Virus record (IMG/VR): IMGVR_UViG_3300007513_000003
Strand: one strand, 5' to 3'
Length of the DNA: 64,000 bases
Origin: a virus
Lineage: Duplodnaviria; Caudoviricetes
A program made the position numbers and the translations under genes. This document shows positions 56,951 through 64,000 of this stretch, piece after piece. The number at the start of each line of letters is the position of its first letter. Position 1 is the first letter of the stretch. The notes under the pieces were generated by a model. The model saw nothing but the letters and a program-made list of their open reading frames with translations. It did not search any database and was not told the origin of the DNA.

Positions 56951-57337
56951 TTATTTATATTCTTTTTTCCCGTTTTGTATGTCTCGCATTTGTATATTAA
57001 TATTGCTACCTACGACGTCTTCATCATATGTTTCCATAGCAATTTGTCTACATAAGTCTTGAAACCATTGATCCACCACTTCTTCGTCTGTTTCACCAGT
57101 TAATCCGTGACCACGTAACATTTTAACGAATGGGTCGTTCCAATCTAATTCAAACGCACCATTAAGTGGGTTCTCACTATTAATTTCTACATCCACAATG
57201 GTAAACCATGGTTCACCCTTTTTTGTCGCTTTCTCCTTTGGCGTCAATTTTTTCTTTGGTTCTTTAACTGGTTCTGGGGTTGGCTCAGAACCAAATGCAT
57301 TTTTTAGTTTTTCAAATATATCCATTATGTTCCCCAT
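56951..57337 (-). CDS. hypothetical phage protein
   Basis: EKAT..GEPW...G.FELDWN..F...L...G..GETDEEVVDQWF. Confidence 0.65.
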   Translation of the reverse strand: MGNIMDIFEKLKNAFGSEPTPEPVKEPKKKLTPKEKATKKGEPWFTIVDVEINSENPLNGAFELDWNDPFVKMLRGHGLTGETDEEVVDQWFQDLCRQIAMETYDEDVVGSNINIQMRDIQNGKKEYK

Positions 57338-58209
57338 GCATTACCAAACAGATCAGAGTGTAGTCTTGGACTATAACGTAATCCATGTTTCATAACTGCT
57401 TCTGCGACAATGCGTGTATTCTTTTTATAATCATCATATAAACCACCTACAGGCATACAATAAACAGGACAGTCAACGCCTGCTTCTTTATATACTGCAA
57501 TGGCTTTTTCTACTTCATCCATGCTTTCTTCGCTATCAATAACAAATTTAAAATACATGTCTGAGAAAGGCATTTTATAATATGCGGCCGCCACATCAGG
57601 CTTAATTGCTTTTCCCCATGGTTCGCCGCTTGCTGATAGTTTAGGAGAGCACGACCAGGTAACATATGGTCTGATAGGAGTCCTGTAATTAGCAAAATCA
57701 CCGGTCCAATTTCGCCAGTCGTAAAACCATTCAAAAATTTTGTCAGTTAAATTTCTAGTAGTATTAGTCTCGAATGTAACATTTTTTAAATCCTGCATAC
57801 GATCATGTGCAAATAAATCAGGATATATTTTTTGCCACATCATAGGCTCACCGCCCGTAATAACTAAATGTATGTCTTGCCCATTGGGCATTATCCAACT
57901 GCCATTGGGCGTTTTTGCCAATAGATCATCTACTAATTTGTCTAAGTCTACATCTGTTGCTAAATATTTAAATCGTGGATCCCAACTTGCATAACTGTCA
58001 CATCCTGTGCTAACTAATGGCAAATCATCAAAGTGTGTATAATCAGCGGCAAAAACGCCGAGTCGCTCTTTGCTTAACTCACCGCGTGGCATTCCAAAAC
58101 CTTGGCATTTTAAATTACAACCAAACAGTCGCAAGAAAACAGACGGCACGCCTGTAAACTTACCCTCTCCTTGTAAACTATAAAATATTTCTGTATATCT
58201 AATCTTCAT
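57325..58209 (-). CDS. queE: 7-carboxy-7-deazaguanine synthase (radical SAM)
   Basis: EIFYSLQGEG..TG.P.VFLR.FGCN..C (insert) CDS, ITGGEP, FETN, SPKL, R.H..L.G. Confidence 0.92.
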   Translation of the reverse strand: MKIRYTEIFYSLQGEGKFTGVPSVFLRLFGCNLKCQGFGMPRGELSKERLGVFAADYTHFDDLPLVSTGCDSYASWDPRFKYLATDVDLDKLVDDLLAKTPNGSWIMPNGQDIHLVITGGEPMMWQKIYPDLFAHDRMQDLKNVTFETNTTRNLTDKIFEWFYDWRNWTGDFANYRTPIRPYVTWSCSPKLSASGEPWGKAIKPDVAAAYYKMPFSDMYFKFVIDSEESMDEVEKAIAVYKEAGVDCPVYCMPVGGLYDDYKKNTRIVAEAVMKHGLRYSPRLHSDLFGNAWGT

Positions 58210-58534
58210 CGGGTTTATTTCCTTGCCATTTATCGCCAAATAATTTATGTAGTGGTATTGCTTGATGTTCTTCCTTAGTCATACCCCAACTAGGCCCCTT
58301 TAACATTCGCTGTATTTTAATTTGCATATCGTCGTATTCTTCTTTCCATTCTTGCTTTTCTTCTTCTAATCTTTTTGGAAGTTTATCTAATATTATAACA
58401 ATTTCTTTAAGATTGTCAAGTGTATTACGTTCAGTTCGTGATATGTATACACTGTGTCGAGGTATTTTAAAATTATCGAAGCATTTGTCTATTAGGTCTT
58501 TTGCCTTATTAATGTCATCTTGCATAACTCTCAA
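58199..58534 (-). CDS. hypothetical protein
   Basis: 111-aa helical ORF, overlaps on both sides. Confidence 0.55.
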   Translation of the reverse strand: MRVMQDDINKAKDLIDKCFDNFKIPRHSVYISRTERNTLDNLKEIVIILDKLPKRLEEEKQEWKEEYDDMQIKIQRMLKGPSWGMTKEEHQAIPLHKLFGDKWQGNKPDED

Positions 58535-59717
58535 TGCCTCCTTCCCTGTGTATGTCTAACGTTAAGCAATGCAATCCACCATCCCAAAAGAATCTATGCC
58601 TAAACGGAGTTACTATAGGCTCTACATTATGCTTTCTAAACCATTTAAATAATTCTTTATTTTCGGTTAGGCACAGTACAGTTTCAGGATTTACCATCAA
58701 TACATTAACGTCCCAAATTGTTTCTTCACAAAATCCTACCCACTCGCTAAACCATTTATCTACGTAGTCAATAAGTTCGTCGTTGTGTTCTTCGCCTGGA
58801 ATCCACCATTTTCCTTGTACTTTTTCTCTAACTTCTAAGAATGGTGACATATTAGACCATTGGGCGTCTGGCAAGTAGAATACGTCCCAATTTGGAAAAT
58901 ACTTTTTAAACTGTAGTGCTTCGCCATTTGATATAAATGCGCCGGGTTTTATTGGTGCGTATATACCATCCGAATGCCCGTCGTTAAAAGCAGTTATAAT
59001 ATTATAGTTGTCTTTAAAATGATTTTTAAAGTATTTGTAAACATGCGGCCGCAATCCATCTAATATTATTGTATCCCCAAGCCGCACAATATTTGGTCCC
59101 TCATTCAAATAATCGTCTTTCCACGGGAATTCAATAATATTTGCGCCTTGTTCTTTTAATTCTTTGAATAATGGTTCATAAAATATAGCAAGGGCCCGGC
59201 TGGCACCTCCCTGTGGATATAATGGATTAATAGTATTTATACAAGCCGGGTTTACTTCTGGCATGCTGTACGGTCTTAACTTATAAAAAGTTTCTCCTAC
59301 TATGATTTGATCGTCCCGTGGAAATAATGGCGGTCGGGTGAGTGCGCCTGGATCTGCATATATATCGTAGTTTGCTAAAAAACTTTCGACACCTTTCCTA
59401 TCAATTAATCTTGGAAAATAATTTAATACTTCATCAATAATAATGTTTAAGTTTTCATCAACACAAGCTCCACCAACTTTGTATATATTATATACTTGAT
59501 CAAAATCAAAAAGTTTCGGGCGTTTAACAGTTACGCCATAACTTTCTAATACTTCTTTAATGTTCTCTAAATCTTCTATGGTTTCTTCAGTAATTTGTTG
59601 CAGAATATTTTTTACTTTAATATTATCAACGTAGTCAAAGAACTCCGGACGATAGCAATCGCCTAACCAACATTCTTTTAGTGGTTGGAATCCTGTGTTA
59701 CAATTGATTACACCCAT
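58515..59717 (-). CDS. amidinotransferase (AGAT/StrB1, pentein superfamily)
   Basis: FQPLKEC.LG, PRD, EGP, HSDG, C-terminal DGGLHC.TLD..R catalytic Cys motif. Confidence 0.85.
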   Translation of the reverse strand: MGVINCNTGFQPLKECWLGDCYRPEFFDYVDNIKVKNILQQITEETIEDLENIKEVLESYGVTVKRPKLFDFDQVYNIYKVGGACVDENLNIIIDEVLNYFPRLIDRKGVESFLANYDIYADPGALTRPPLFPRDDQIIVGETFYKLRPYSMPEVNPACINTINPLYPQGGASRALAIFYEPLFKELKEQGANIIEFPWKDDYLNEGPNIVRLGDTIILDGLRPHVYKYFKNHFKDNYNIITAFNDGHSDGIYAPIKPGAFISNGEALQFKKYFPNWDVFYLPDAQWSNMSPFLEVREKVQGKWWIPGEEHNDELIDYVDKWFSEWVGFCEETIWDVNVLMVNPETVLCLTENKELFKWFRKHNVEPIVTPFRHRFFWDGGLHCLTLDIHREGGIESYAR

Positions 59718-60184
59718 CCATTAAACCCTGCTTCGGGGTTATGATAGGTTGAACTGTTCTTGTCATTTTCTCTTGCTTCTACACTAATAACCCATGCTCT
59801 GCCACCTGTTCTTTCGCGTAACCATCCATCAGCATAATTACAGATACGCATAGCAGTGCCTTCCATACCTGGCCCTTCTTCTTGTACAATTAATTTACAT
59901 ACACCCGCATCGTGTAGCATTTGGAATGTTTCCATATATGGGTCATCGTGATCAATAACAAACGTATGGTCATAATTCTCTTCTAACCATCTCTTTAGTT
60001 CTTTCAAGTCACTATAATCAACAAGAAATCCTTCTTTTGTCATAGTGTGTGCGCCAAACGTAAAATGAAAACTACGGCTATAGCCGTGTATCATAGCGCA
60101 GTTTCCGTCATGCTTGTGTTGTCTATGAGCACACGGAAAGTTATAAAATGTTTTTGTAGATGTAAATTCAGGTACTCCGCTCAT
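59708..60184 (-). CDS. queD: 6-carboxytetrahydropterin synthase
   Basis: AHRQ..H.G.C..IHGY, VDY..LK, DH, E......V.V.E..KNS. Confidence 0.9.
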   Translation of the reverse strand: MSGVPEFTSTKTFYNFPCAHRQHKHDGNCAMIHGYSRSFHFTFGAHTMTKEGFLVDYSDLKELKRWLEENYDHTFVIDHDDPYMETFQMLHDAGVCKLIVQEEGPGMEGTAMRICNYADGWLRERTGGRAWVISVEARENDKNSSTYHNPEAGFNGWV

Positions 60185-60326: not shown

Positions 60327-60869
60327 TTACCAATTTTTATCACTCCACCAGTTTTCCCACGGAAAAACAATCCACGAGGGATCTTCAATTTTATTAATCA
60401 CTAATGAGGTGTAAGAGATTTCTGTAAATCTACTCTCCTCATTATTAACTAGCGAAGCAAAACGAACATTAGAGCCTACAACTTTGTCCCAAGACTTAAC
60501 ACCCGGTATCGGCGCATTCATCCAATCATTTACAATCCAATCAAATGTAGCACCAGAATCATTTATATCATCAACAACAAGTATATTTTTAGGTTCGATT
60601 ACTTCTTCATGACTAAAACTAGTTTTAGTTATGCCTGACGCGTCTGCCGCCATTTCTAAACTAGATTGTAGATTGTGTCCATCTCGTAATCTAACATCTA
60701 ATGTATGTAACGGTGTTTCTAAATAATGACTCAACATTGTAGCAGGAATTAGTCCTCCCCTTGTAATACCTACAATGTATTCAGGCCGCCAATTACCAGC
60801 ATAAATCTGTTGAGTAATATCTAAAACTTGCGACTTAATGTCTTGTGTATTTAGATAGATCATTTTCAT
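60327..60869 (-). CDS. type I phosphoribosyltransferase (Gpt/Hpt-like)
   Basis: VGITRGGLIPA..LSH, LVVDDINDSGAT PRPP motif, WIVFPWE. Confidence 0.88.
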   Translation of the reverse strand: MKMIYLNTQDIKSQVLDITQQIYAGNWRPEYIVGITRGGLIPATMLSHYLETPLHTLDVRLRDGHNLQSSLEMAADASGITKTSFSHEEVIEPKNILVVDDINDSGATFDWIVNDWMNAPIPGVKSWDKVVGSNVRFASLVNNEESRFTEISYTSLVINKIEDPSWIVFPWENWWSDKNW

Positions 60870-60886: not shown

Positions 60887-61573
60887 CTATCGCGGAGCAA
60901 ATTCTTGCTGAAGTTTGATATTGTCAAAGAACTCTTTTTTAGTAGAAGCATCTTCTTTAAATGATCCTTTAAGCACTGTTGTTTGTGTTAGACTAGAGTG
61001 TGCCATGACACCCCTATTTTCTACGCAACCATGCGTTGCTTGTACGTAAACACCTACATTACTAGAACCTGTTGCTTTAATAATTTCATGTGCTATGTCG
61101 TTGGCAAGTTCTTCTTGTAGTGTTCCCCGTCTGGCACACCATTGTGCTATACGTGTATATTTGGATAATCCTATAAGTGTGTCTGCCGCGATAATGCCAA
61201 TATATGCAACTCCGGTTACTGGTTGAAAATGATGGGAGCAAACGCTACGTATTTCACTTCTTACAACAAGCATGCCTTCGTAACCATCCTCTACATGATT
61301 AGGAAATGCGGTTGCATTGGGCATGTTATCAAAACGGCCGCTCATAAGTTCTCTTATATACATTTTTGCTAAACGACGCGGCGTGTCAATAGAGTTAGGA
61401 TCACTATGCCTATCAATAAGCAGAGTGTCCAATACTCCTTCAAACTTTTCCGTTAGTTCATCAATGAGCAGATCTTTTTCTTCTTCTTCGATAAATTCTG
61501 ATATATTGTCTCCTGCCCAAAAACGTCCACCGTGTTCTAGCATTCTGTTTCTAATTGTTTTACTAATGCTCAT
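60887..61573 (-). CDS. folE: GTP cyclohydrolase I
   Basis: DTPRRLAK, SVCSHHF, GLSKY.R, LQE, HGCVENRG; GGAG RBS before ATG 61573. Confidence 0.95.
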   Translation of the reverse strand: MSISKTIRNRMLEHGGRFWAGDNISEFIEEEEKDLLIDELTEKFEGVLDTLLIDRHSDPNSIDTPRRLAKMYIRELMSGRFDNMPNATAFPNHVEDGYEGMLVVRSEIRSVCSHHFQPVTGVAYIGIIAADTLIGLSKYTRIAQWCARRGTLQEELANDIAHEIIKATGSSNVGVYVQATHGCVENRGVMAHSSLTQTTVLKGSFKEDASTKKEFFDNIKLQQEFAPR

Positions 61574-61594
61574 ATATTTCTCCAAGTACTATAT

Positions 61595-61623
61595 ATTATA
61601 AAGATTATTTAGGCAAATGTCAA
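61595..61623 (-). promoter_or_regulatory. consensus sigma70 promoter for folE-PRTase-queD-amidinotransferase-queE
   Basis: TTGACA, 17 bp, TATAAT. Confidence 0.8.
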
Positions 61624-61630
61624 TTATTTG

Positions 61631-62830
61631 TTAAAATTTAGACTCCGCAACATGGTCTCTATATCTATTTCCATCACGGCGCCACTGTTCTCCGTTGCCC
61701 TCCATAATATCACATATGCGATCAATAGTACCATTCGTCCAATCGGATATTCTTCCCATGTTAAAACTTGGCATTCTTAGAGCAGTATCAATTTTTTCAA
61801 TAGCAGAGTGCATACTCCAAGGAATATACAAACGATCTGCATCATTAGCAAAAGTTTCAGGGAAACTGCGATATGCAGGATATACTACATTACACCCTAG
61901 TGTATCCGCTTCACTTACAGTATTGCTTACCCAATCTTGTAGCGCACAATTGAATAATACCTTACTGTCGTTAACGATATTATAATAATCATTCTTATTT
62001 AGGTCAGTATAAATTTTTAGAACTCCTTCTGCTTGTAATTTCAATGCACGATCTAAATATTTTTGATTGTTACTGCGTAAAGGCCCGCCGCTTAGAACAG
62101 CGAACTCAACATCAGTTATACTATCTACATATTGATTTTGGTGCTTTAGATGGCCAGTTACTGTTTCAACAATATCCATAAAGAAGTCAGGTTGTTTTTC
62201 TTGATCAAATCTTGCCGCAAATACAACACGATTAGATCTTTCACTCCACTTCTTTACCTTATTTCCTACTCTTTCAAGAACTTCACTTTTGCCAAAACTC
62301 AATCCTGATATGTTGTATATAGGAGCAGTCCAGTTAGCAATACGCATATGGGCAACCATTTCTTCATTAGTAGCCAATACTGTAGCAAACTCATTAACCA
62401 TTTGCTCATACAAACTCATCCACTTGGACATACCCCATACATGGACAAAGTCATCAGGATCTACCGCCTGGGCAAGACAACGGACATAAACTTTGGGGCG
62501 TTGATTTTCGGGAATCTGGTTCATAATATACGGAAGTGATTCTATACCAGGTTGAAACATATCCTCAAAGAAGATAGCATCCTCCCCTGTCACAGTTCCA
62601 TCACGCATCATTTGGACTAGGTTCATCATTTGGCTCATACCAAAATAACTGCGTCCATGTGCGTCTAACACTTGTCCTACAGATATTGCTTTAGTATTGT
62701 CAATAGTCTCACCGGGCACAACTATATAGTCTATGCCTCTGCGTTTAAATACACGCTCACTCCATTCTTGTAATTGTAATGTATATCTTCCTTCATAAGG
62801 CTCAAGTCCCATGTATATTAATTTACGCAT
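61631..62830 (-). CDS. GT-B fold glycosyltransferase
   Basis: FAARFDQEKQPDFF and DWVSNTVSEA (D/E-x7-E) donor-binding motif, YPAYRSFPE. Confidence 0.75.
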   Translation of the reverse strand: MRKLIYMGLEPYEGRYTLQLQEWSERVFKRRGIDYIVVPGETIDNTKAISVGQVLDAHGRSYFGMSQMMNLVQMMRDGTVTGEDAIFFEDMFQPGIESLPYIMNQIPENQRPKVYVRCLAQAVDPDDFVHVWGMSKWMSLYEQMVNEFATVLATNEEMVAHMRIANWTAPIYNISGLSFGKSEVLERVGNKVKKWSERSNRVVFAARFDQEKQPDFFMDIVETVTGHLKHQNQYVDSITDVEFAVLSGGPLRSNNQKYLDRALKLQAEGVLKIYTDLNKNDYYNIVNDSKVLFNCALQDWVSNTVSEADTLGCNVVYPAYRSFPETFANDADRLYIPWSMHSAIEKIDTALRMPSFNMGRISDWTNGTIDRICDIMEGNGEQWRRDGNRYRDHVAESKF

Positions 62831-62919
62831 TGTGTTTTCCTTTAGTAATTAAGTAGATGGGCGTTACTGTAAGAACCATGCTATTAGCACAGTAAACATC
62901 GCCGTTGTTGGTATTACCT

Positions 62920-63068
62920 CTAAACAGTAACTCCATCTATGTTCGTTGTCTTAAGACCAGTTACATACCATTCAGGTGCAGGTCTTGCTTTGTTCCAGGC
63001 GGCAAATCTAGATTTTTCGCCCAAATAAAAATTTCTATTTGCATCTCTGCAAGTATAAACCTATTCAT
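62920..63068 (-). pseudogene. out-of-frame remnant resembling a pyrimidine-dimer glycosylase-like family gene
   Basis: MNRFIL start in one frame; NRNFYLGEKSRFAAWNKARPAPEWY in another. Confidence 0.35.
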
Positions 63069-63478
63069 TGATAAAGCCTTTCTATATCAACCTCATCACA
63101 AAATTCTCCATATTGTATTTCTACAATATGCAATGGTGTATAAGAAGGGTTCATGATTTGATGCCATTCTCCGGCTGGCACGTGGTAAGATTCATGCTTA
63201 TTTAATATAATAGTTCTAGCATCACGTTCTATAAAATTATGCCGATTGCTAAGATCTCCTTTGCTACAAGATTCAGTATAGTTTGGTGCTAATATAAGTC
63301 TTGCAACACCAGATTCTACAATCCAAAACTCATTTCTATGTTCATGACGTTGGAAACTCATACAGGAGTTAGGATTTACGACTAGCTCCTTAACCTTCAT
63401 ACTTTTGAAGTTAGCAAGAACATCATAAACTCCCCAATCTCGTTGGATATCAAATTTATTGTTGTCTTTGTTCTGCAT
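63065..63478 (-). CDS. cupin, mannose-6-phosphate isomerase type II C-terminal-like
   Basis: RDWG.Y.VL...VKELVV.P...SFQRH.HR.E.W.V..G ... EIQYG....E.DIER; ATG 63478 preferred. Confidence 0.8.
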   Translation of the reverse strand: MQNKDNNKFDIQRDWGVYDVLANFKSMKVKELVVNPNSCMSFQRHEHRNEFWIVESGVARLILAPNYTESCSKGDLSNRHNFIERDARTIILNKHESYHVPAGEWHQIMNPSYTPLHIVEIQYGEFCDEVDIERLYQ

Positions 63479-63677
63479 TGCTTTTTTTATAAGGTTTTCT
63501 AAAATGTGGATACCCTGGCCAATATCTTGCCTTGCCAGTCTCCTTCCAGCGTAAAAAGTCGCTATATGGACTCTTTTCCTTATATAAATGTGCCTCATCA
63601 AAGACTCGTCCAAATTCTCGACAGAAGTCACGATATGCATCCAAATCATCAAAGATTTGTTTCACTGCTTTTTTCAT
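63456..63677 (-). CDS. hypothetical protein
   Basis: 73 aa; IFDDLDAYRDFCREFG..FDEAHLY. Confidence 0.6.
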   Translation of the reverse strand: MKKAVKQIFDDLDAYRDFCREFGRVFDEAHLYKEKSPYSDFLRWKETGKARYWPGYPHFRKPYKKSNAEQRQQ

Positions 63678-63698: not shown

Positions 63699-63998
63699 TT
63701 AGTTAATGTTTTTATAAGCGATTACAGGATAGACGCAATGGCATCCATTCTCGTCATCTTCGCTTACGTCTATTTGGACTTCTCTGCCTTTATAGCGTTC
63801 GTTGATTGCTAGGTAGAGATCGTCTGCTATCATTTCACAGGACTTGTAGTCTAATTGTAAAGTGCCTGTGGAATAAAGATTTTCCAACCAACGTTTAAAT
63901 TGAATAAATTCAATATCTCTGTCGTCGTGGAATACTTGTATAGTAACCTTAAAGTGGAATGTGTGGCGATGTGGATATCCGAGAAAGGATACATCATA
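63699..63998 (-). CDS. second T-fold (QueD/PTPS-like) protein, 5' truncated
   Basis: Frame open to the window edge: HRHTFHFKV...DRDIEFIQFKR...SCEMIA....V.V.EDDENG. Confidence 0.6.
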   Translation of the reverse strand, partial: YDVSFLGYPHRHTFHFKVTIQVFHDDRDIEFIQFKRWLENLYSTGTLQLDYKSCEMIADDLYLAINERYKGREVQIDVSEDDENGCHCVYPVIAYKNIN

Positions 63999-64000
63999 CT

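Follow-up and report, generated by a model that had tools for sequence, protein, structure and literature searches.

We examined a 64,000-nucleotide stretch of DNA (the window) from the IMG/VR virus record IMGVR_UViG_3300007513_000003 (Duplodnaviria; Caudoviricetes), which corresponds to bases 180-64179, reverse strand, of a 111.8-kb viral contig judged to be about 31% complete. Its right end encodes a glycosyltransferase of the GT-B fold, P0001, and the main finding is that genes of this transferase family are repeatedly linked, at more than 100 loci of phages with unrelated backbones, to dpdL and other genes of 7-deazaguanine synthesis. It is very likely that the transferase is a functional part of this deazaguanine module, and we lean towards the view that a sugar-bearing deazaguanine ends up in DNA. 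A prediction made earlier from the letters of the window (the original prediction) had proposed that P0001, with a neighbouring cupin, adds a hexose to a modified DNA base. This is partly supported, through the repeated linkage to DpdL and deazaguanine synthesis and not through the resemblance to phage T4 enzymes or to queuosine glycosylation from which it was argued. The placement in a base-modification module, with GalE genes as neighbours in relatives, stands; the acceptor may be either DNA or the free base.

All genes at the right end of the window lie on the minus strand, in the order dpdL, a 73-aa open reading frame (ORF), the cupin, P0001, folE, a phosphoribosyltransferase (PRTase) gene, queD, a 400-aa gene, a 111-aa ORF and queE (Table 1). 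The transferase and the cupin had been placed on either side of the que genes; both in fact lie upstream of folE, on the same strand. Gene contexts were drawn from IMG/VR loci (given below by handles such as L110) and from GenBank phages. About 80 IMG/VR loci related to the window keep the order dpdL-transferase-(variable)-folE-PRTase-queD-queE, and because homologues of window genes are found on contigs of up to about 350 kb, the virus, marine and uncultured, is a jumbo phage. A megablast comparison of the 8-kb region with phages gave zero matches. The transferase family numbers more than 8000 clusters (about 78% identity) and, at the 50% level, 815 representatives with E <1e-3, all found in viral or metagenomic data only, and its matches in the ESM Atlas are confined to viral clusters labelled 'hypothetical/GT1'.

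The association with DpdL extends well beyond the close relatives of the window. At all 13 loci examined for distant homologues (30-45% identity), DpdL abuts the transferase on one side or the other, and FolE, QueE and QueD are also encoded; the next gene, clearly a phage TGT/DpdA, matches phrog_887, 'queuine tRNA-ribosyltransferase', at 1e-37 to 1e-40. For the distant homologue P0268 there was no matching IMG/VR locus. The distant loci (L097-L108) have another replication backbone, in which the module adjoins a gene for PolA with a fused uracil-DNA glycosylase domain (PF03167, along with a 3'-5' exonuclease domain), next to clamp and clamp-loader genes. Six isolates likewise have a gene adjacent or close to DpdL that matches the family profile (E 3e-148 to 3e-40): Synechococcus phage BUCT-ZZ01, Acidovorax phage ACP17, Pseudomonas phage PA5oct, Sinorhizobium phage Phosso, Xanthomonas phage BUDD and Burkholderia phage BCSR5. 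Their gene order varies. The transferase gene and dpdL are adjacent on at least five unrelated phage backbones, in shuffled order and often as overlapping or abutting ORFs, and no examined locus has the transferase without DpdL or without que genes.

DpdL is encoded with no transferase within 9 kb in phages phiST, RHph_I1_18, Bakedbeans, Ahp1, D479 and MA9V-3, and all six carry a DpdA3 of the phiST gp042 type. DpdA3 clusters lacking the transferase (L084, L090-L093) recurrently contain a deoxynucleoside monophosphate (dNMP)-kinase-like ATPase and a dUTPase/MazG-like gene, which hints at nucleotide-level steps in the DpdA3 variant. No paper that links a glycosyltransferase to DpdL, or that describes a sugar-bearing purine of the predicted kind, was found in searches that missed most subscription journals; the complementarity of transferase and DpdA3, the alternation of GalE with the cupin and the T4 controls described below are additions of this analysis.

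The ORF upstream of the cupin was recognised as DpdL by the motif LxxxHRHxF, which stands in place of the CxxxHGH of QueD and was read in L083:26-481. This motif defines DpdL, a paralogue of 6-pyruvoyl-tetrahydropterin synthase (PTPS)/QueD and the proposed 7-carboxy-7-deazaguanine (CDG) decarboxylase of Cellulophaga phage phiST, in whose DNA 7-deazaguanine (dDG) replaces all G (PMC10516641). The window DpdL is 33% identical to phiST gp040 (E 7e-16) and 61% identical to the DpdL of ACP17 (ASD50405), and matches phrog_17812 at 1.3e-34. In two phages DpdL forms the C-terminal part of a larger protein, Bakedbeans gp176 (L090:8251-9402, 383 aa) and MA9V-3 XQU63047 (L093:8431-9312, 293 aa).

FolE, QueD and QueE are all present in the window. 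QueC (PF06508) and a canonical tRNA-guanine transglycosylase (TGT) were not found in the window contig, in any of three large relatives or in BUCT-ZZ01, whose genome is complete, the absence of QueC resting mainly on the relatives because the window contig is so incomplete. With QueC and a canonical TGT absent, the pathway ends at CDG or 7-deazaguanine and not at preQ0 or queuosine. The glycosylation of queuosine in tRNA, to which the original prediction appealed, therefore has no relevance here, and queuosine-tRNA glycosylation as the role of the transferase was rejected for lack of QueC. The Gpt-like PRTase gene that follows folE is kept in 60 relatives, in BUCT-ZZ01 and in PA5oct, and was not found within 9 kb in ACP17, BUDD, BCSR5 and Phosso. 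Most simply, this enzyme would recycle guanine released by base exchange; by analogy with TubE and ToyH it could alternatively make a deazaguanine nucleotide.

The AlphaFold2 (AF2) model of P0001, built on a 63-sequence alignment (predicted local distance difference test score, pLDDT, 94.3; predicted template modelling score, pTM, 0.92), has two Rossmann-like domains with an interdomain cleft, as expected of a GT-B fold, and its structural matches span residues 1-380. VIA Z scores against dozens of GT4 and other GT-B chains range from 26.7 to 20, and Foldseek E values are as low as 5e-12. The closest folds are GT4-type retaining transferases, namely sucrose-phosphate synthase (Z 26.7), BshA (25.3), PglA (24.5) and PimA (24.1). 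Residues R207 and K212 are at the GT4 donor-diphosphate site and align to the GRLDxNKNP motif of WlaC, and D299-x7-E307 occupies the position of the GT4 EX7E motif, aligning to the E...E of CapJ with the first glutamate replaced by aspartate; across 63 homologues each of these four residues is either invariant or conserved to at least 90%. Both genes named in the original prediction, the GT-B protein with a D-x7-E motif and the cupin resembling phosphomannose isomerase (PMI), are thus real, on the evidence of the AF2 fold, the GT4 motifs and a match to PF01050.

P0001 scores 22.3 bits against the Pfam family Glycos_transf_1 (PF00534), under the gathering cut-off of 26.4; the BCSR5 homologue is above it with 42 bits, and many metagenomic homologues also carry PF00534. 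Judged by these scores, the family is a divergent offshoot. Its N-terminal (acceptor) domain is highly conserved (E10, Y12, R15, Y16, T17, W23, D56, R60, D90, D124 and D127), and it defines the family, whereas the accompanying sugar genes are variable. With its conserved donor residues, and with nucleotide-sugar genes beside it in relatives, P0001 looks like a genuine sugar transferase with a varying sugar supply.

The original prediction had pointed to the T4 alpha- and beta-glucosyltransferases (AGT and BGT) as GT-B enzymes that act on DNA bases. No sequence relation to either was found, and the fold match to AGT (Z 20.7), level with that to the lipopolysaccharide (LPS) enzyme WaaG, is no better than those to LPS enzymes, PimA and BshA. 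The original prediction had taken closest homology to LPS GT4 enzymes as a sign against a DNA acceptor; such homology is present at the level of fold only, and is non-discriminating, since T4 AGT belongs to that fold cluster too. The isoelectric point (pI) of P0001 is 5.3 and the family median is 5.7, compared with 6.1 for AGT and 9.05 for BGT, values that reflect net charge only.

The genes that supply sugars vary around this core. In 64 relatives the gene directly after the transferase encodes GalE (UDP-glucose 4-epimerase; 307 bits, NCBIfam equivalog cut-off 262), and the extra genes of other relatives encode a nucleotide-sugar dehydrogenase, an RfaE-II-like nucleotidyltransferase, a DegT-like protein or a small cupin. 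The window has no GalE, and instead has the PMI-type cupin upstream of the transferase. This cupin matches PF01050, the C-terminal domain of mannose-6-phosphate isomerase, with 95.8 bits (cut-off 23.6), and its metal motifs are legible as HEHRNE (HxH...E) and PAGEWHQIMN (PxGxxHxxxN); against the TIGR01479 equivalog it reaches 80 bits (cut-off 373), and it corresponds to the C-terminal cupin part of type II PMI only. Close relatives of the cupin are few (77, 71 and 63% identity), and it is absent from its slot in the other window-clade loci. The cupin, which the original prediction joined with the transferase in one module, is not a conserved partner; it is a lineage-specific accessory for sugar supply, a substitute for GalE that does not define the module.

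The same arrangement is found in a close relative, L110, where a 50%-identical cupin occupies the same slot and the layout is that of the window (dpdL, cupin, transferase, folE, PRTase, queD, 400-aa gene, queE). The transferase there (L110:1822-2913) is only 17% identical to that of the window and matches the family profile at 2e-31, which looks, from sequence comparison, like a transferase swap within a conserved module. The slot is therefore a hot spot at which sugar genes, and apparently even the transferase, are exchanged.

If the deazaguanine is to enter DNA a base-exchange enzyme is called for, and candidates were found in the relatives. The transferase-bearing isolates retain long TGT-like proteins in which the motifs DSGG[FL]Q and H-x-LG are seen (BUCT-ZZ01_034, ACP17_403, BUDD USV40850, BCSR5_062 and PA5oct_0316), the first three annotated as queuine tRNA-ribosyltransferase; BCSR5_062 matches PF01702 at E 0.04, and the others have no Pfam match at E up to 10. 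Of the 79 window-clade loci, 72 encode, about 3-5 kb upstream of dpdL, a DSGGFQ and HFLG motif protein with a length of about 490-540 aa (for example L043:4538-6007), and this protein is as abundant as the transferase, with more than 7000 clusters. The 489-aa representative is 36% identical to PA5oct gp0316 (E 3e-88). No Pfam or PHROG family was matched by the DSGGFQ protein, and neither the 489-aa protein nor a profile built on the DpdA-like neighbours from the 13 distant loci had a match among PDB sequences. Comparison of the 489-aa protein with the TGT-like family of BUDD, ACP17 and BUCT-ZZ01 by hhalign depended on the set-up, with values of 84% and 8% in two runs, and its AF2 model, from a shallow alignment, reached a pLDDT of 48 only. 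We tentatively regard the DSGGFQ protein of the relatives as a DpdA-like base-exchange enzyme, probably of an unclassified DpdA subfamily with a clamp-docking tail.

Several of the DpdA-like proteins have a short tail at or near the C-terminus that resembles the tail of the phage's own DNA polymerase. The tails are SLDDLFE and TLDELFE in ACP17 and, in the window clade, TTFTSLF (PolB) and TQFxxLF, the motif of the DpdA-like protein being T(Q/M)FxxLF; the tail of T4 gp43 is SLDFLFG. This likeness fits enzymes acting at the replication fork. In BUCT-ZZ01 a second, weak GT1_4-like protein of 447 aa (UTS52035; L001:7010-8353) adjoins the DpdA-like gene and ends in SLEDFFND, and its DpdA-like neighbour ends in SLDSFFD, both tails being like the clamp-binding tails of the T4 type. 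The notion that insertion is carried out by the transferase in place of DpdA was rejected, because the transferase-bearing clusters keep a TGT-like gene.

A plausible pathway can be assembled from these components. FolE, QueD and QueE turn GTP into CDG, which DpdL would decarboxylate to 7-deazaguanine, and a TGT/DpdA-like enzyme, whose gene lies a few kb upstream in relatives and past the end of the window contig, would swap guanine in DNA for the analogue, with the Gpt-like PRTase recycling the guanine set free by the exchange. The GT4-like transferase would move a hexose from a nucleotide sugar onto deazaguanine, either as the free base, ahead of insertion, or once the base is part of DNA. 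UDP-Gal or UDP-Glc is the probable donor in most relatives, given the adjacent GalE, and in the sub-lineage of the window the PMI-type cupin may take the place of GalE as an accessory for sugar supply or tailoring. The predicted product is a sugar-bearing purine analogue in virion DNA that could act as a shield from restriction. The data establish the identities of the genes, the fold, the conservation of the donor motifs and the linkage, whereas the acceptor, the attachment atom, the order of the steps and the sugar are inferred from context; the presence beside the core of GalE, the PMI cupin, a UDP-sugar dehydrogenase or a swapped transferase suggests that the sugar would differ by sub-lineage.

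Observations on cultured phages are consistent with this pathway. The DNA of PA5oct, which carries the transferase-DpdL module, resists restriction at G-containing sites and is cut by nucleases that sense hypermodified DNA, the base itself not having been identified there (PMC12191111). Co-expression of the ACP17 dpdA and dpdL genes in E. coli yielded no dDG, and the authors suggested that another enzyme is needed (PMC10516641); in ACP17 the transferase gene lies between dpdA and dpdL. A deazapurine acceptor has a precedent in HuiG, which puts GlcNAc on a 7-deazapurine base. More tentatively, we propose that one of the most abundant clades of marine jumbo phages, with genomes of about 350 kb, together with PA5oct, ACP17, BCSR5, BUDD, Phosso and BUCT-ZZ01, may carry glycosylated 7-deazaguanine in DNA.

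Several points weigh against placing the sugar on DNA. 7-Deazaguanine has no obvious oxygen nucleophile at C7, and a sugar would need N2, O6 or a ring carbon; we know of no DNA in which a deazaguanine carries a sugar at any of these positions. The acceptor is deduced from gene context. The fold of P0001 is equally near to transferases of small molecules, including the pteridine glucosyltransferase 5ZER (Z 23.1), and the family as a whole is acidic and lacks the clamp-docking tail seen in the adjacent DpdA-like proteins and in the second transferase of BUCT-ZZ01; net charge and tail are nonetheless uninformative on the acceptor, because T4 AGT has a pI of 6.1 and both T4 enzymes are tailless. 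Because a perfect promoter lies between folE and the transferase gene, co-transcription is not assured. The window contig stops at dpdL, and its own DpdA-like gene is not visible.

The small-molecule likeness is the basis of an alternative that we consider unlikely, in which the transferase glycosylates a free deazapurine or a pterin, the aglycone being supplied by FolE and the QueD/DpdL T-fold enzymes, to give a soluble metabolite (a huimycin-like compound or a pterin glycoside) that never enters DNA. Pterin glycosides are made by a cyanobacterial tetrahydrobiopterin (BH4) glucosyltransferase, and P0001 matches 5ZER as well as it matches most GT4 enzymes. DpdL is itself a PTPS/QueD paralogue, HuiG offers a precedent for glycosylation of a free 7-deazapurine base, and an acidic transferase with no clamp tail would suit a soluble acceptor. 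The module, however, always includes QueE, which is specific to CDG, and it lies inside the replication region beside a DpdA/TGT-like gene. Moreover, it is the DNA of PA5oct itself that behaves as G-modified (PMC12191111), and phiST, which has the same DpdL, has dDG in its DNA (PMC10516641). Rather less likely again is a role of the transferase and sugar genes in altering a glycan of the host or virion, such as an envelope polysaccharide in superinfection exclusion, their adjacency to dpdL reflecting shared early expression or inherited synteny. Cupin isomerases, nucleotidyltransferases and several transferases are frequent in jumbo phages and cyanophages, where their supposed role is to diversify the surface polysaccharide (PMC7824862), and the closest solved structures are GT4 enzymes of glycan and lipid pathways. 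Shared expression or inherited synteny is difficult to reconcile with adjacency on at least five unrelated backbones, in shuffled order and often with overlapping or abutting ORFs, or with a family that was found in phages only, is absent from the DpdL phages carrying DpdA3 and never occurs without que genes in the examined loci; nor would a glycan role readily account for an acceptor domain that is strongly conserved while the sugar genes vary.

A third possibility accepts the partnership with DpdL and DpdA and holds that the transferase fold was recruited for a non-sugar step, perhaps as a partner that DpdL and DpdA need in order to make or insert 7-deazaguanine, the DNA carrying plain dDG. 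The mutual exclusion of transferase and DpdA3 would agree with this, as would the failure of ACP17 dpdA and dpdL alone to give dDG in E. coli, but the phiST dpdA/dpdL pair also failed there with no transferase involved (PMC10516641). Since the GT4 donor-binding residues are conserved and GalE or other nucleotide-sugar genes of the phage adjoin the transferase in most relatives, we regard a non-sugar role as improbable. A glucosylation of 5-hydroxymethyl-pyrimidines in the manner of T4, unconnected with the deazaguanine genes, is very improbable. T4 AGT is a structural neighbour, as noted, but the family profile matches neither T4 a-gt nor b-gt at E up to 10, and the ThyA family (PF00303) was not found in the window contig, in an 86%-complete relative (G002) or in the genomes of BUCT-ZZ01 and ACP17, both complete; among the genomes checked it is present only in PA5oct. 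Glucosylation of hydroxymethylcytosine or hydroxymethyluracil was rejected because most module-bearing phages lack a ThyA-like gene.

The reading we favour, a deazaguanine module with a sugar transferase, has its nearest known counterpart in the dDG system of phiST (PMC10516641), with which it shares FolE, QueD and QueE without QueC, the DpdL homologue and the location in a replication module. The phiST system differs in having DpdA3, a MazG-like gene, a kinase-like gene and no glycosyltransferase, whereas a GT4-like transferase, sugar genes, the Gpt-like PRTase and a different long TGT-like protein are present in the window clade. AGT and BGT are likewise phage GT-B enzymes encoded in a DNA-metabolism region, and AGT, itself acidic, superimposes on P0001 with a root mean square deviation (rmsd) of 3.9 over 318 residues; there is, however, no detectable homology and no hydroxymethylase to provide an acceptor, the partner in the window being DpdL and not a ThyA homologue. 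GT4 enzymes with small acceptors (BshA, MshA, PimA, sucrose-phosphate synthase and the glucosyltransferase BGluT, 5ZER) give the best fold matches (Z 23-27) and share the R/K motif and an EX7E-like D-x7-E, but are only 7-13% identical to P0001, whose score is under the Pfam GT1 threshold, whose family is phage-only and whose conserved N-terminal domain is distinctive.

HuiG, compared here by description, transfers GlcNAc from UDP-GlcNAc to the 2-amino group of a 7-deazapurine base and is encoded beside FolE, QueD and QueE genes, but it is an actinomycete enzyme of secondary metabolism whose acceptor is O-methylated preQ0 and whose product is outside DNA. The cupin shares its PF01050 match and metal motifs with the type II PMI of bifunctional GMP/PMI enzymes (TIGR01479) and lacks their guanylyltransferase part; it is 30% identical to the 'mannose-6-phosphate isomerase' of cyanophage S-SCSM1.

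To our knowledge, DNA glycosylation occurs only on hydroxymethyl-pyrimidines, and all eight 7-deazaguanine DNA bases known to us have a small substituent at position 7 or none. If the proposed pathway is correct, its product would be without precedent in any genome as a purine analogue that bears a sugar, and would found a new class of hypermodified purines. It would also explain the missing product of ACP17 dpdA and dpdL expressed alone, and point to an identity for the 'modified G' of PA5oct. There would be implications for restriction evasion, for type IV and END-nuclease sensing, for sequencing artefacts in marine viromes, and for enzymatic tools with which to label purines in DNA. The prediction for the transferase is testable on phages already in culture.

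Table 1. Genes and promoter at the right end of the window, with positions counted from its first base.
Feature	Position	Strand	Evidence or remark
dpdL (proposed CDG decarboxylase, QueD-like T-fold)	63699..64000, cut by window end	-	full 151-aa ORF is L083:26-481
73-aa ORF between dpdL and cupin	63456..63677	-	no Pfam or PHROG match
Standalone PMI-type cupin (lineage-specific accessory), 137 aa from its ATG	63065..63478	-	PF01050 2.5e-27, Cupin_2 4e-08
DpdL-linked GT-B (GT4-like) glycosyltransferase P0001, 399 aa	61631..62830	-	fold, motifs, linkage to DpdL
Sigma-70 consensus promoter TTGACA-17-TATAAT	61595..61623	-	12/12 matches; in 45-bp gap from transferase stop to folE start
folE (GTP cyclohydrolase I)	60887..61585	-	PF01227 1.8e-40; NCBIfam FolE 6.6e-43
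Gpt/Hpt-like purine PRTase	60327..60869	-	PF00156 4.7e-13; phrog_8995; weak NCBIfam xanthine/hypoxanthine PRTase matches
queD (6-carboxytetrahydropterin, CPH4, synthase)	59708..60184	-	PF01242 1.2e-20; phrog_2389 1.9e-34
400-aa accessory gene, outside conserved module	58515..59717	-	no Pfam match
queE (radical-SAM CDG synthase)	57325..58239	-	phrog_2076 3.3e-55; NCBIfam QueE N-terminal matches

In addition to the promoter before folE, a second sigma-70 promoter with 12/12 consensus matches lies at 58392-58419 (minus strand), inside or just before the 111-aa ORF upstream of queE. With perfect promoters at these two places, the deazaguanine genes are apparently organised into separate strong early units. 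The 400-aa accessory gene is 67% identical to L110:4849-6015, which occupies the same slot, and is present in only 5 of 83 loci. The 73-aa ORF overlaps the start of the cupin gene by 23 nt.

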